Virus record (IMG/VR): IMGVR_UViG_3300021963_000030
Length of the DNA: 64,000 bases
Strand: one strand, 5' to 3'
DNA from: a virus
Shown here: in pieces, positions 3,442-13,251 of the stretch
Layout: every line of letters starts with the position of its first letter
Numbering within the stretch: the stretch's first letter is position 1
Notes under the pieces: generated by a model
Seen by the model: the letters and a program-made list of their open reading frames with translations, nothing else
What the model was told of the DNA's origin: nothing
Database searches by the model: none
Program-made: the position numbers and the translations under genes

Positions 3442-3669
3442 ATGAAAAAGATGATTGTGTCGTTGATTTTGATTGGCAACGTTCTAATTGCTAGTGAAGT
3501 TATCAAGGAAGTAAAGATCGAACCTATCACGGTTTACGTTGTCCGTAATGGTGATTCGGATCGATCAATTCATAAAGTTTTTTTGACAGAGAAGTCAGCT
3601 AAGAAGTATTGTGATACATACAAGGAAAGTCACAATTATGAATGTGAAGTTCTTGTGTTGACCGAATAA
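3442..3669 (+). CDS. Small protein with a signal-peptide-like N-terminus
   Basis: MKKMIVSLILIGNVLIA hydrophobic leader; directly downstream of a promoter. Confidence 0.7.
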   Translation: MKKMIVSLILIGNVLIASEVIKEVKIEPITVYVVRNGDSDRSIHKVFLTEKSAKKYCDTYKESHNYECEVLVLTE

Positions 3670-3682
3670 TACTTATTAGTGT

Positions 3683-3756
3683 GCGGGAGTGATGTAACGG
3701 TAGCCTGGGGCTCTTCCAAAGCCCACGAAAGGGTTCGATTCCCTTTTCCCGCTCCA
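3683..3756 (+). tRNA. tRNA-Gly(TCC)
   Basis: GCGGGAG/TTCCCGC, U73, anticodon arm GGGCT-CTTCCAA-AGCCC, T-loop TTCGATT, CCA. Confidence 0.95.
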
Positions 3757-3768
3757 CTTTTAAATATT

Positions 3769-3867
3769 ATGGCAACTAAAGGAATGAGACGACAACACTT
3801 ACGTAAAACCAAAAAAGGTTATTGCAATGTTAAAAGTTGTAGTGTAAAAAAGCGTAAGAAGAAGTAA
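3769..3867 (+). CDS. 32-aa highly basic peptide MATKGMRRQHLRKTKKGYCNVKSCSVKKRKKK
   Basis: ATG at 3769 after tRNA-Gly(TCC); the longer ORF-track call overlaps the tRNA; paralog of 732-854. Confidence 0.7.
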   Translation: MATKGMRRQHLRKTKKGYCNVKSCSVKKRKKK

Positions 3868-3873
3868 TTTAAT

Positions 3874-3945
3874 GGCTGGGGTTTCAGCAAACGACGAATC
3901 CTCATAAGGTTTGTTAAGTGGGGGCAGCACCCATACCAGCTACCA
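3874..3945 (+). tRNA. Atypical tRNA with CAT anticodon (Met or Ile2)
   Basis: Acceptor GGCTGG/CCAGCT, mini D-arm GTTT-CAGC-AAAC, 8-bp anticodon stem around CT-CAT-AA, T-loop GGCAGCA, A-CCA. Confidence 0.75.
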
Positions 3946-3968: not shown

Positions 3969-4353
3969 GGGCGTGTTCAGGTTTCGATTTAAGGATGCGT
4001 TCATGCTAGGCACGTAGAGGATGATAGTTGGCCTCTTTAAACGTCTATCAAAACATAACTGCTGAAGAAAACGTAGTTAGCTATGACTTCTCTTACGAGA
4101 ACACCGTAGCACTTGCAGCCTAATTAAAGGTCGCACATTTGATCAATGATTGTTCGATAGTTGATTGAATGTTATTATCGGACTATAATTGGAATGATTG
4201 ATTTGCTCATCCAATCTACCTACTTGTAAATCTTAAGAAACAAATTTTTGATGATTTAGATTTTGTTTCCTATCAAATACAAATCATACAAGCGTGTAGT
4301 CTGGTATGGATCACTTCTTAAAGACGCGAGTTCGATTCTCGCCACGTCCACCA
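3969..4353 (+). ncRNA. ssrA: tmRNA with tag peptide (A)AEENVVSYDFSYENTVALAA
   Basis: Acceptor GGGCGTG/CACGTCC with G3:U70, T-arm GCGAG-TTCGATT-CTCGC, ACCA end, resume context ATAACT-GCT at 4061, tag ORF ending ALAA-TAA at 4123. Confidence 0.95.
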
Positions 4354-4362
4354 TTTTTATTA

Positions 4363-4394
4363 AAAGACCCAAGCATAAACTTGGGTCTTTTTTT
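4363..4394. terminator. Intrinsic terminator after tmRNA, probably bidirectional
   Basis: AAGACCCAAG/CTTGGGTCTT hairpin with a T tract downstream and an A tract upstream. Confidence 0.85.
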
Positions 4395-11325: not shown

Positions 11326-13251
11326 ATGTCTGCGATAACTAGGTTGAACAGAACAGGCCCAATCGCATTCTCCCAAATGACAATTGGGACACCATATGGT
11401 GCGATCAATAATCTGATTGATAACGTTGTTGGCACACCAGCATCTCAAAATATTTCGTTATCTGCATCGTTGGGATTGTTGATCAAAAATACAGGAGATC
11501 CAACAACTGACACAAAAGATTCGTTGGGTCTTGGTATTGGATTGGTAACACTCAATCAGTCAGCCGATGCAAGAATGAGTGAGTTTTATGGTGGTAATTA
11601 TTTAAGTGCATCTATAACCAAGTCTGGTTCCGCAACGGGTGTATGGTTTACTGAGTTTTATCCAGATAGTGTAGTTCCAAATGCCAACTATTTGACAAGA
11701 GAAACTTCAAGTAGAGTTTATAGATACACGGTATATTCAAAGCCAAATCCTCCTGGTAGTTCAACATTTAGACTTCAATATTCATACATAAGACCAAACG
11801 ATTCGGACGAATATATTACTCAACTTACCGATAATAATATTTACAAAATTGTTTTGAAGGACACGGTGTCTAATGCGTTTACATCTAGTCTTTTTACTGG
11901 ATCGTGTGCTGCTGGGTCTACCACTAGTCAAACTACATTATTTGAATCTAATAATACTACAAATTTTCAAGCTACTGTAGATTCTACAAGATTTTTTATT
12001 AATGCAAGTAGCACAATAAGTTCTTTTCAACGAAGTGATTTGAATAGTATTTGTAGTTTTATAAATACACTGATCAATACACCAGAGACTTATGCTTTAA
12101 GCGGATACACAAGAACGATACCTGTCGTTGGTTCTTCAGGAACCAGAACATTTTCAGTGGAGGGATTCATAGCAAATGTTATAGGTGGTGGTCGATATTT
12201 TGCGGGATACATTTTAGCAACCGGTTGTCCAGGTTGGCCAAATCTATCATATGCAGTTTCAGATTCACGAACTACTGCTGGAAGTGCTATTTTTAACATT
12301 TCTACAATTTCCGATCCGACTGCTGCTGGTAGTTGCGGTTCTGCTCCTACACTTACTATATCAAACACAGCAGTAACTCAAAGATGTGGATTAACTGCTC
12401 AAGTCACTGCAACGCCAACTGGACCTACACAAGTAAGATTTAGTGGTAGTGCTATATTTACAAATCCAGTAACAAATGCGTATAATGCGTCATTTAATCT
12501 GAACGTTGCTGCTCCTCCATATACATCAGACTGGATCAACACAGCCAACGGTATGTCACTGTATGCTGCTCCTGGTGGTATCGCACAACTTTTACCAACC
12601 TTTAGTCCAACCACGTTTACATTAGCTCCAGGTGCGACACAAGTTGTTAACTATGGATTTGGATTGGCATTTTATAATCAATCATATCAAAGTTCAAGCT
12701 TCTCAGGCAAAGCTACCTTCACAGTGTCTTTCCCAACTGCTCCAGGCGCACCATCTTATACTGGCACTGTAACTGCTACCATGGATAAATCAGTATGTTA
12801 TGTCGCAGCACCTCCTCCAGCCGGTGGTGGTGGTGGATGTCCAGCAGCTTGGCAATTGATGGAAACTTTGGAGTGTGGATTTATACCAGCTAGAGAAATC
12901 GAAGTTGGTATGCACTTACGTGACTCTGAATCTGATAAGTGGAACAAGGTAACTGTAGCTCATATTGACAGAGCACCAATTTATAGAACTACTATTAATG
13001 GTAATGATTTTGATGTTGATGACAGTCATAAATGGTATGCTGGTAATGGAGTATGGAAGGTGGTTACAGATGTTAAAAAGGGAGATAAACTTGAAGGTAT
13101 TGGTGGCATGGAGTTACATGTAGATGATAACATCTTGTTGTTTGAAGAAGAAGATTTTATGCATTTAAATTGTGAAAATAGTAGATTTGTCATGGGAACA
13201 TACGTAATTGGTCATAACTTCCCAGTCAAAAATGCAATCATAAAGAACTAA
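11326..13251 (+). CDS. Virion protein with C-terminal Hint (intein-like autoprocessing) domain
   Basis: GGGGG-C505-PAAWQ start, SHKWY block-B-like motif, terminal GHN631 followed by Phe. Confidence 0.75.
   Translation: MSAITRLNRTGPIAFSQMTIGTPYGAINNLIDNVVGTPASQNISLSASLGLLIKNTGDPTTDTKDSLGLGIGLVTLNQSADARMSEFYGGNYLSASITKSGSATGVWFTEFYPDSVVPNANYLTRETSSRVYRYTVYSKPNPPGSSTFRLQYSYIRPNDSDEYITQLTDNNIYKIVLKDTVSNAFTSSLFTGSCAAGSTTSQTTLFESNNTTNFQATVDSTRFFINASSTISSFQRSDLNSICSFINTLINTPETYALSGYTRTIPVVGSSGTRTFSVEGFIANVIGGGRYFAGYILATGCPGWPNLSYAVSDSRTTAGSAIFNISTISDPTAAGSCGSAPTLTISNTAVTQRCGLTAQVTATPTGPTQVRFSGSAIFTNPVTNAYNASFNLNVAAPPYTSDWINTANGMSLYAAPGGIAQLLPTFSPTTFTLAPGATQVVNYGFGLAFYNQSYQSSSFSGKATFTVSFPTAPGAPSYTGTVTATMDKSVCYVAAPPPAGGGGGCPAAWQLMETLECGFIPAREIEVGMHLRDSESDKWNKVTVAHIDRAPIYRTTINGNDFDVDDSHKWYAGNGVWKVVTDVKKGDKLEGIGGMELHVDDNILLFEEEDFMHLNCENSRFVMGTYVIGHNFPVKNAIIKN

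Follow-up and report, generated by a model that had tools for sequence, protein, structure and literature searches.

Structure and conservation of a compact tRNA(CAU) gene

Among the non-canonical transfer RNAs (tRNAs) covered in a published review, an elongated anticodon stem of 6 bp is found in tRNA-Pyl and in mitochondrial (mt) tRNA-Ser(UCN), and phages are not mentioned (PMC7609411). A 0-nucleotide (nt) connector together with a 4-nt D-loop is described there only for the tRNA-Pyl of M. alvus (PMC7609411), and the 8/4 and 9/3 tRNAs of bacteria and phages represent a different design (PMC5389517). Here, we analyzed a stretch of 64,000 nt from the IMG/VR virus record IMGVR_UViG_3300021963_000030 (hereafter the window), which carries a compact candidate tRNA gene with a CAU anticodon at positions 3874-3945. 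Canonical bacterial tRNAs have a 2-nt connector, a D-loop of at least 7 nt with G18G19, a position 26, a 5-bp anticodon stem, a variable region of at least 4 nt, and T54-Psi55-C56, whereas the candidate has none of these features. The literature searched, including that on phage-encoded initiator and CAU tRNAs, contained no account of a compact CAU tRNA from phages; as far as this literature extends, the candidate represents a previously undescribed tRNA whose core is compact and specific to phages and whose elbow is probably rewired. The gene is composed of the following parts:

3874-3945, plus strand: compact tRNA(CAU) gene, 72 nt including the encoded CCA (identified from the sequence; 85.4 bits with covariance model R1)
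3874-3880, plus strand: acceptor 5' strand GGCTGGG, pairing with ACCAGCT at 3935-3941 (G1·U72, five Watson-Crick pairs, and a G7×A66 mismatch)
3881-3892, plus strand: D arm GTTT-CAGC-AAAC, a 4-bp stem with the tetraloop CAGC (proposed A18 and G19), directly abutting the acceptor
3893-3915, plus strand: anticodon arm, GACGAATC (3893-3900) pairing with GGTTTGTT (3908-3915) in 8 bp, including three G·U pairs
3901-3907, plus strand: anticodon loop CTCATAA with the anticodon CAT at 3903-3905; as RNA (CUCAUAA), it has U33 and A37
3916-3917, plus strand: variable region AA (2 nt; AA was fixed in the search patterns described below)
3918-3934, plus strand: T arm GTGGG-GGCAGCA-CCCAT, a 5-bp stem with the loop G54 G55 C56 A57 G58 C59 A60
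3935-3945, plus strand: acceptor 3' strand ACCAGCT, discriminator A73, and encoded CCA (3943-3945)

All of the features listed in a preliminary description made from the letters alone (acceptor, D arm, anticodon stem, variable region, and T-loop) were found at the positions given there. The gene includes every part of a four-armed cloverleaf with a 7-nt anticodon loop (U33 and a purine at position 37), a discriminator, and CCA. Its outermost acceptor pairs are G1·U72, G2:C71, C3:G70, U4:A69, and G5:C68. No connector (positions 8-9) separates the acceptor from the D stem, and position 26 is missing, with the 4-bp D stem and the 8-bp anticodon stem adding up to 12 bp. The gene has a G+C content of 50% with strong stems, and the cloverleaf is the minimum-free-energy fold of the 72 nt (RNAfold).

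ARAGORN, which had been named in the preliminary description as a means of checking the gene, gave a different outcome in each mode. The bacterial mode reported seven tRNAs and a transfer-messenger RNA (tmRNA) in the window and missed the candidate even at 80% thresholds, whereas the mammalian-mitochondrial mode (-mtmam) reported an mtRNA-Met(cat) at exactly 3874-3945. The Rfam model RF00005 gave no match to the candidate at the gathering threshold, nor at E ≤ 10 in a 6-kb search. These results suggest that phage tRNA censuses based on ARAGORN, tRNAscan-SE, or Rfam overlook whole gene classes. The only CAU tRNA found in this island is invisible to such censuses, which would skew conclusions on codon supply and defense evasion.

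The rejection of the gene by standard tRNA finders, together with a single-sequence folding energy that is not significant (z = -1.32), weighs against a functional tRNA and would fit a pseudogene in decay, a cloverleaf formed by chance, or a copy of a host tRNA of the attP type. The energy of the single sequence is ordinary, and therefore the case against chance rests on comparison.

The exact 23-mer of the anticodon arm was present in 15 IMG/VR contigs (L001-L015), and the full 72 nt were 100% identical in all of them. Across the contigs, identity spans precisely G1 to the CCA, and the sequences beyond either end are unrelated; these gene-exact limits ruled out a protein-coding or overlapping open reading frame (ORF) as the source of the constraint. 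The identical allele occupies at least six different, unrelated flanking contexts, and the 300-nt flanks in five contexts were approximately 50% identical, as is usual for sequences that cannot be aligned. Neighboring genes compared between the same contigs have diverged, with identities of 76-92% for the tmRNA, 68-80% for tRNA-Gly, 70-84% for an fMet-like tRNA, and 55-76% for a UAU tRNA. The near-identical variants in L016, L017, L018, and L046 differ only by G·U to G-C, G·U to A-U, and C-G to U·G changes, all of which keep the pairing. Additionally, the candidate always lies within phage tRNA arrays, usually 7-10 nt (an AT-rich spacer) 3' of the CCA of another tRNA, and it ends in ACCA, as do the neighboring tRNAs. 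Because the identical allele occurs in unrelated tRNA arrays, these results point to its recent lateral spread between phages, apparently as a gene-sized cassette.

More divergent relatives were collected with degenerate search patterns, in which only the loops and the spacing were fixed and all stem positions were left as N; therefore, pairing was not selected by the search. The patterns recovered L024, a second subfamily (subfamily 2, comprising L020, L026-L034, and L037), the more distant L036 and L038, and L045, and the scan of metagenomes added just two members (L045 and L046). Patterns with a free anticodon returned the same loci, all with CAT. The matches L019, L021-L023, L025, and L035 were without a cloverleaf and were discarded as chance. 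As the collections were scanned by fixed patterns, the counts may underestimate the size of the family, other anticodons, and cellular members. The invariance of the loops counts for less in favor of a functional tRNA, as it was partly imposed by the patterns, in which the anticodon loop and the variable AA were fixed.

A gap-free alignment of 13 distinct family sequences was used for the analysis of covariation. The D stem was 98% paired, with three of its four pairs changed on both sides; the 8-bp anticodon stem was 90% paired (six of eight pairs changed on both sides), and the T stem was 100% paired (five of five). Taken together, the three helices were 95% paired, compared with 68% in shuffles, and 14 of the 17 pairs were changed on both sides. 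None of 500 shuffles reached the covariation score, registers slid along the alignment were only 35-48% paired, and RNAalifold independently predicted the same arms. The extended anticodon stem, to which the preliminary description had drawn attention, is by these counts conserved in the homologues; its top pair is variable (G·U, G-C, A-U, C-G, or unpaired). The D-loop was CAGC or CAGT in 13 of 13 members, and positions 54 and 58 of the T-loop were either G and G or A and U.

The family uses two forms of the acceptor, and a single acceptor register for all members was rejected. The window type pairs at six of seven positions, and L024 forms a perfect 7-bp stem (TGGAGGT/ACCTCCA) in the same register (alignment columns 5-11 and 66-72). 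In subfamily 2, L036, and L045, the acceptor pairs 3 nt further 5' (U1 GCGGGU7) and is followed by a GG connector, a 5-bp D stem (GAGGU/AUCUC), and a 7-bp anticodon stem, most of these genes having a single bulged nt in the 3' strand. One acceptor of this type (L030) shows a compensatory change from G:C to A:U. The combined length of the D and anticodon stems is 12 bp in both forms (4 + 8 or 5 + 7). Position 1:72 in the relatives is U·G, U×U, or U-A and never G-C, and it is U·G or U×U in the subfamily 2 type. A further locus in L024 (10822-10895; 37 bits with R1) has the same scaffold, with a CAGU D-loop, a variable AA, and a GGCAGCA T-loop, together with the anticodon region CUUGUAG and an irregular stem; it could represent either a degenerating copy or a paralogue whose anticodon differs.

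Members of the family were found in IMG/VR phage contigs, in which the homologue search envisaged in the preliminary description was successful, and blastn of the 72 nt against 50,697 GenBank phage records returned chance fragments only. Model R1 found exactly one strong copy per contig (75-91 bits), in addition to weaker paralogues (25-37 bits), most of which are other compact CAU tRNAs directly beside the gene. When one genome from each of 185,579 prokaryote species was scanned with a pattern running from the D-loop to the T arm, two hits were obtained, both without a cloverleaf and attributable to chance, so that no such tRNA was found there. No integrase-like gene was present among the flanking ORFs scanned with Pfam, the neighbors being tRNA genes, the tmRNA, and short ORFs. 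An attP copy of a host tRNA is ruled out by the conservation of the whole gene, its location in tRNA arrays, and the failure to find a cellular counterpart in these genomes. Perfect conservation with gene-exact boundaries in unrelated contexts and compensatory changes in three helices likewise leave a decaying pseudogene or a chance cloverleaf highly improbable. On this comparative sequence evidence, the segment 3874-3945 is a gene for a non-canonical tRNA and not a product of chance, and the tRNA shape, the CAU anticodon, and the compact core that had been proposed for it are supported by both sequence and covariation.

Elbow arrangement and amino-acid identity

The elbow was surveyed in all CCA-encoding cloverleaves of the window and the fetched loci, which comprised 176 distinct tRNAs with C56 and either U or G at position 55. 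The D-loop contained GG in 110 of the 113 tRNAs with U55 (AG without GG in two and another sequence in one), and AG without GG in 55 of the 63 tRNAs with G55 (GG in seven and another sequence in one). Approximately one third of the tRNAs in these phages combine a G55 T-loop with a D-loop in which AG replaces GG. The G55 T-loops, including GGCAGCA, were found on tRNAs for Asp, Ser, Thr, Glu, Gln, Lys, Phe, Val, Tyr, Leu, and others, two of which in the window are as follows:

459-551: tRNA-Ser (GCT), T-loop GGCAGCA
1031-1105: tRNA-Gln (UUG), T-loop AGCGTAA

The GGCAGCA T-loop pointed out in the preliminary description is therefore present in the gene but not peculiar to it, being part of an A18/G55 elbow on many phage tRNA species. 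In the candidate, the CAGC tetraloop supplies A18 and G19, and the T-loop supplies G55 and C56. Since this arrangement recurs in roughly one third of the phage tRNAs, the elbow of the candidate is probably rewired rather than lost, with the contact between the D-loop and the T-loop retained. The term mitochondrial-like probably suits the secondary structure and not the tertiary logic. The rewired elbow is lineage-wide, and it accounts for the failure of ARAGORN or Rfam to detect several of these tRNAs. Rare T-loops with A56 or U56 accompany D-loops without the G18-G19 motif. A compact CAU paralogue in L006 (12198-12273) has the D-loop UAUU and the T-loop UGAAAUU, which suggests a U19:A56 swap.

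The candidate is plausibly a Met-accepting translational tRNA, a reading in which we have moderate confidence. Methionyl-tRNA synthetase (MetRS) recognizes chiefly the CAU anticodon, together with A73, G2:C71, and C3:G70. The window gene has all of these features of elongator tRNA-Met (CAU, A73, G2:C71, and C3:G70) and no Ile-type marks at 3:70, 4:69, or 5:68. Its acceptor end (G1·U72, G2:C71, C3:G70, and U4:A69) resembles in sequence that of elongator tRNA-Met, and it begins with GGCU, as in E. coli elongator tRNA-Met. Ile(CAT) genes are marked by G3/A3 or C70/T70, with C4:G69 and C5:G68 being frequent, and C3:G70 is typical of Met and fMet genes (PMC1635315). Related phages that carry the family have canonical Ile2-like CAU tRNAs of the G3 type (L006, 13616-13691; L026, 26-101), and others carry UAU tRNAs. 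The record G003 (92% complete) contains a canonical elongator-like tRNA-Met, a UAU tRNA, and an fMet-derived compact tRNA as its only initiator-like gene. Within the tRNA clusters fetched from G001, the CAU anticodon was seen on the candidate, on another compact tRNA, and on an 87-nt fMet-like tRNA; these clusters yielded no canonical elongator tRNA-Met and no Ile2-like CAU tRNA. The preliminary description held that the identity could not be determined from the sequence, which is too strict: the acceptor features and the other CAU tRNAs of related phages favor Met over Ile.

Several points weigh against this assignment. The 28 long ORFs contain 239 AUA codons and 211 AUG codons, and most other tRNAs of the island read A-ending codons, which would suit an Ile2 role with lysidine. 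The homologue L024 has G3:C70, an Ile-type mark, and G1·U72 in the window gene, with weak or mismatched 1:72 pairs across the family, fits an initiator better than an elongator. Moreover, among the tRNAs that have been solved or tested, none is known to us to function with an anticodon stem of 8 bp in the absence of a connector, and the distance from the anticodon to the CCA could be too long for the ribosome.

Some of these points bear on a tRNA-Ile2-type identity, in which host TilS would make lysidine at C34, isoleucyl-tRNA synthetase would charge the tRNA, and AUA, common in this AT-rich phage and probably rare in the host, would be read. AUA accounts for 23% of Ile codons, at 15.4 per 1000 codons compared with 13.6 for AUG, and the other island tRNAs are mostly for A-ending or phage-preferred codons. 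No UAU tRNA or other CAU tRNA was detected in the window lineage, and a conserved G27·U43 wobble is present, as it is in E. coli tRNA-Ile2. The G3:C70 pair of L024 is the mark of Ile(CAT) genes (PMC1635315), but the window gene has C3:G70, U4:A69, and G5:C68, which are not Ile-type pairs by the same criteria. Furthermore, the larger phages with the identical gene already have UAU or canonical Ile2-like CAU tRNAs, and the sister subfamily is plainly fMet-derived. Lysidine formation would require host TilS to accept the compact core, since searches of the phage records G001-G004 gave no match to TilS (PF01171), nor to the MetRS, formyltransferase, and peptide deformylase families; therefore, host enzymes must serve the tRNA. 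Taken together, we regard an Ile2-type identity as unlikely.

The relationship to initiator tRNAs differs between the two branches of the family. In the window gene, the initiator G:C pairs at 29-31/39-41 are absent (A29 U30 C31 / G39 G40 U41, compared with R29 G30 G31 / Y39 C40 Y41), as are the fMet D-stem pairs A11:U24 and G12:C23 (GUUU/AAAC), which are complete discriminators of fMet genes (PMC1635315). The D stem of subfamily 2 (GAGGU/AUCUC) has both of the latter pairs, and the 5' half of these genes, (U)GCGGGU GG GAGG, is close to that of bacterial tRNA-fMet, CGCGGGG UG GAGC. On these sequence grounds, subfamily 2 clearly derives from initiator tRNA-fMet.

The extreme core, with 12 stacked D and anticodon pairs, no connector, and a 2-nt variable region, would also be compatible with a tRNA mimic that delivers no amino acid. 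Such a mimic could serve as a decoy or sponge by binding a host factor directed against tRNA-Met or tRNA-fMet (for example, an anticodon-loop nuclease or a toxin that attacks Met-tRNAfMet), or as a regulatory or processing element of the tRNA/tmRNA operon. The presence of up to three or four odd CAU tRNAs side by side in an array is more like an arms race than codon supply, and phage tRNAs are known to counter tRNA-targeting defenses (PMC10264068). However, the candidate strictly retains what decoding and charging require (a 7-nt loop with U33, CAU, and A37; A73; and an encoded CCA), no defense system targeting tRNA-Met was identified here, and the candidate is the sole CAU tRNA found in the window lineage. 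A role as a mimic is consequently rather improbable in our view.

For the candidate as a Met-accepting tRNA, we propose the following course of events. It would probably be co-transcribed with tRNA-Gly(TCC) and the tmRNA, from the promoter-like site at 3583-3612 to the terminator at 4362-4391, and the transcript would be cut at G1, the CCA being already encoded. In the predicted fold, the acceptor of 6-7 bp runs straight into the 4-bp D stem capped by CAGC, and the D stem would stack on the 8-bp anticodon stem, giving 12 stacked pairs compared with approximately 10 layers in a canonical tRNA; the size of the T arm is normal. The elbow would be held by contacts of A18 with G55 and of G19 with C56, as in many other tRNAs of these phages. 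Host MetRS would then charge the candidate, which would read AUG during infection.

A broader and more speculative proposal, which we consider doubtful, is that the candidate represents a phage-exclusive, laterally mobile compact-core tRNA-Met. Its 12-bp D/anticodon helix, tetraloop D-loop, and A18:G55 elbow might insulate it from host factors that read the tRNA core (tRNA-directed defense nucleases or toxins, modification enzymes, and quality control), while host MetRS and the ribosome could still use it. It might even serve both initiation and elongation, like the single mitochondrial tRNA-Met.

Local context, carriers, and other unusual tRNAs

The gene lies in a putative transcription unit with the following features:

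3583-3612, plus strand: promoter-like site TTGACA-18-TATTGT (consensus scan), upstream of the unit of tRNA-Gly, CAU tRNA, and tmRNA
3683-3756, plus strand: tRNA-Gly(TCC), the upstream neighbor in the same putative unit (ARAGORN; Rfam, 49.6 bits)
3769-3867: 32-aa basic (Lys/Arg-rich) ORF between tRNA-Gly(TCC) and the CAU tRNA
3969-4353, plus strand: tmRNA, 23 nt 3' of the CAU tRNA (ARAGORN; Rfam RF00023, 122.6 bits), with the 20-residue tag AEENVVSYDFSYENTVALAA
4362-4391, plus strand: intrinsic-terminator-like hairpin closing the unit (12-bp stem followed by a T run)

In L012 and L013, at least the 3' end of the 32-aa ORF has been preserved, immediately upstream of the CAU tRNA. The tmRNA also adjoins the CAU tRNA in L001, L002, and L011-L013, with the tag and the RNA diverging (76-92%) while the CAU tRNA is identical. 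The island of this lineage (the window, L001, L002, and L011-L013) contains approximately a dozen tRNAs, for Leu, Ala, Ser, Gly, Gln, Pro, and Val; the candidate is the sole CAU tRNA, and no UAU tRNA was found, in the window and the fetched parts of the related contigs. Rfam detected no RNase P RNA at 1109-1350 of the window, even when 311 nt were searched at E ≤ 10. If a minimal RNase P RNA does exist at this position, it would lie outside the known models and would bear on the maturation of tRNAs with a rewired elbow.

The phages that carry the family are large, tailed, and uncultured. Among the genes of the window are T4-like ones for baseplate, portal, and terminase, and its terminase is 52-53% identical to those of the Microcystis phage Mel-JY01 and the Flavobacterium 'immuto' phages, from which we infer a freshwater origin of the carriers. 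The record G001 is an estimated-complete phage of 295 kb with 31 Rfam tRNA matches. A tblastn search of the 861-aa neighboring ORF against phages gave no match.

Class II-shaped tRNA genes recur just 3' of CAU tRNAs across otherwise divergent phages. ARAGORN identifies them as tRNA-Ile(UAU) of 92-94 nt, with a hairpin variable arm of approximately 24 nt and an AUA-reading anticodon, and their Rfam scores reach 62 bits. They were found at the following loci:

L003, 4858-4951: tRNA-Ile(UAU)
L004, 10062-10153: tRNA-Ile(UAU)
L006, 12460-12553: tRNA-Ile(UAU)
L008, 14424-14517: tRNA-Ile(UAU)
L024, 10649-10740: tRNA-Ile(UAU)
L042, 2591-2682 and 4230-4322: tRNA-Ile(UAU)
L043, 2455-2546: tRNA-Ile(UAU)

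Related phages have up to three or four different CAU tRNAs in a row. Among the odd CAU tRNAs is a second compact type, in which the D stem has 5 bp, the D-loop has 3-4 nt, and position 1:72 is A1×A72 or A1×G72. These and further unusual genes of the arrays are as follows:

L004, 9526-9603: odd CAU tRNA adjoining the candidate
L006, 12198-12273: odd CAU tRNA adjoining the candidate, of the second compact type (D-loop UAUU, T-loop UGAAAUU)
L036, 11759-11835: odd CAU tRNA adjoining the candidate
L003, 4212-4294: odd CAU tRNA adjoining the candidate
L016, reverse strand, near 13033-13106: odd CAU tRNA adjoining the candidate
L004, 9969-10055: 87-nt fMet-like tRNA with a 14-nt variable region
L003, 661-736: amber-suppressor-like tRNA(CUA)
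L003, 1359-1821: GOLLD RNA in the tRNA array (212 bits)
L041, 10502-10577: tRNA with a 4-nt anticodon (ctct; ARAGORN)
L043, 1336-1408: tRNA with a 4-nt anticodon (gacg; ARAGORN)

The identical allele and the adjacent odd CAU tRNAs suggest active exchange of, and selection on, Met/fMet-type tRNAs in large phages of the freshwater type.

Comparison with known non-canonical tRNAs

The preliminary description assigned a Pyl/mitochondrial-like architecture to the candidate. This holds insofar as the nearest published analogues are tRNA-Pyl of the M. alvus type and mt tRNA-Ser(UCN) (PMC7609411), and ARAGORN calls the gene in its mitochondrial mode; it does not extend to membership, as the anticodon, the discriminator, and the 1:72 pair differ.

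Like the tRNA-Pyl of M. alvus (PMC7609411), the candidate joins the acceptor directly to the D stem (0-nt connector), has a D-loop of 4 nt, and combines an elongated anticodon stem with a very short variable region. Both have neither G18G19 nor T-Psi-C and both have a 7/5 acceptor/T branch; with such a branch, the candidate would therefore be used by the normal translation machinery. In contrast, tRNA-Pyl has the CUA anticodon, a universal G73, and G1:C72 (PMC7609411), whereas the candidate has CAU, A73, and G1·U72, and its membership in tRNA-Pyl was rejected because these identity elements were not found. The anticodon stem has 6 bp and the variable arm 3 nt in tRNA-Pyl, compared with 8 bp and 2 nt in the candidate. 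Additionally, the loops of tRNA-Pyl are unrelated in sequence to those of the candidate, which was found only in phages.

Mammalian mt tRNA-Ser(UCN) (type I) and metazoan mt-tRNA-Met resemble the candidate in that the connector is shortened, the D-loop is small, the anticodon stem is extended, and the variable region is short. However, mt-tRNA-Ser(UCN) keeps G18G19, T-Psi-C, and a 6-bp anticodon stem (PMC7609411), whereas the candidate has A18 G19/G55 C56 and 8 bp, and unlike mitochondrial tRNAs, it is neither organellar nor AT-eroded.

With bacterial tRNA-Met and tRNA-fMet, the candidate has in common the CAU anticodon within a CUCAUAA loop, A73, G2:C71, and C3:G70, and subfamily 2 retains the fMet-like 5' half and a weak or absent 1:72 pair (criteria of PMC1635315). 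It differs from them by the absence of the 8-9 connector and of position 26, as well as by its 4-nt D-loop, 8-bp anticodon stem, 2-nt variable region, and G55 in place of Psi55.

If the candidate works in translation, then the bacterial ribosome, EF-Tu, RNase P, and an aminoacyl-tRNA synthetase would all tolerate this core. It would have the longest natural anticodon stem that, to our knowledge, functions in translation, exceeding the limits of tRNA-Pyl and mt-tRNA-Ser(UCN), and would bear on how much of the tRNA core is required. It would also offer a natural scaffold for orthogonal tRNA engineering.

Finally, the candidate has the same T-loop N-G55-C56 and the same replacement of GG by AG in the D-loop as the other A18/G55 elbow tRNAs of these phages. 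The latter have D-loops of 7-9 nt, 5-bp anticodon stems, and variable regions of 4-5 nt, and they are often found by Rfam or ARAGORN; the compact CAU family adds a shrunken core to this elbow.

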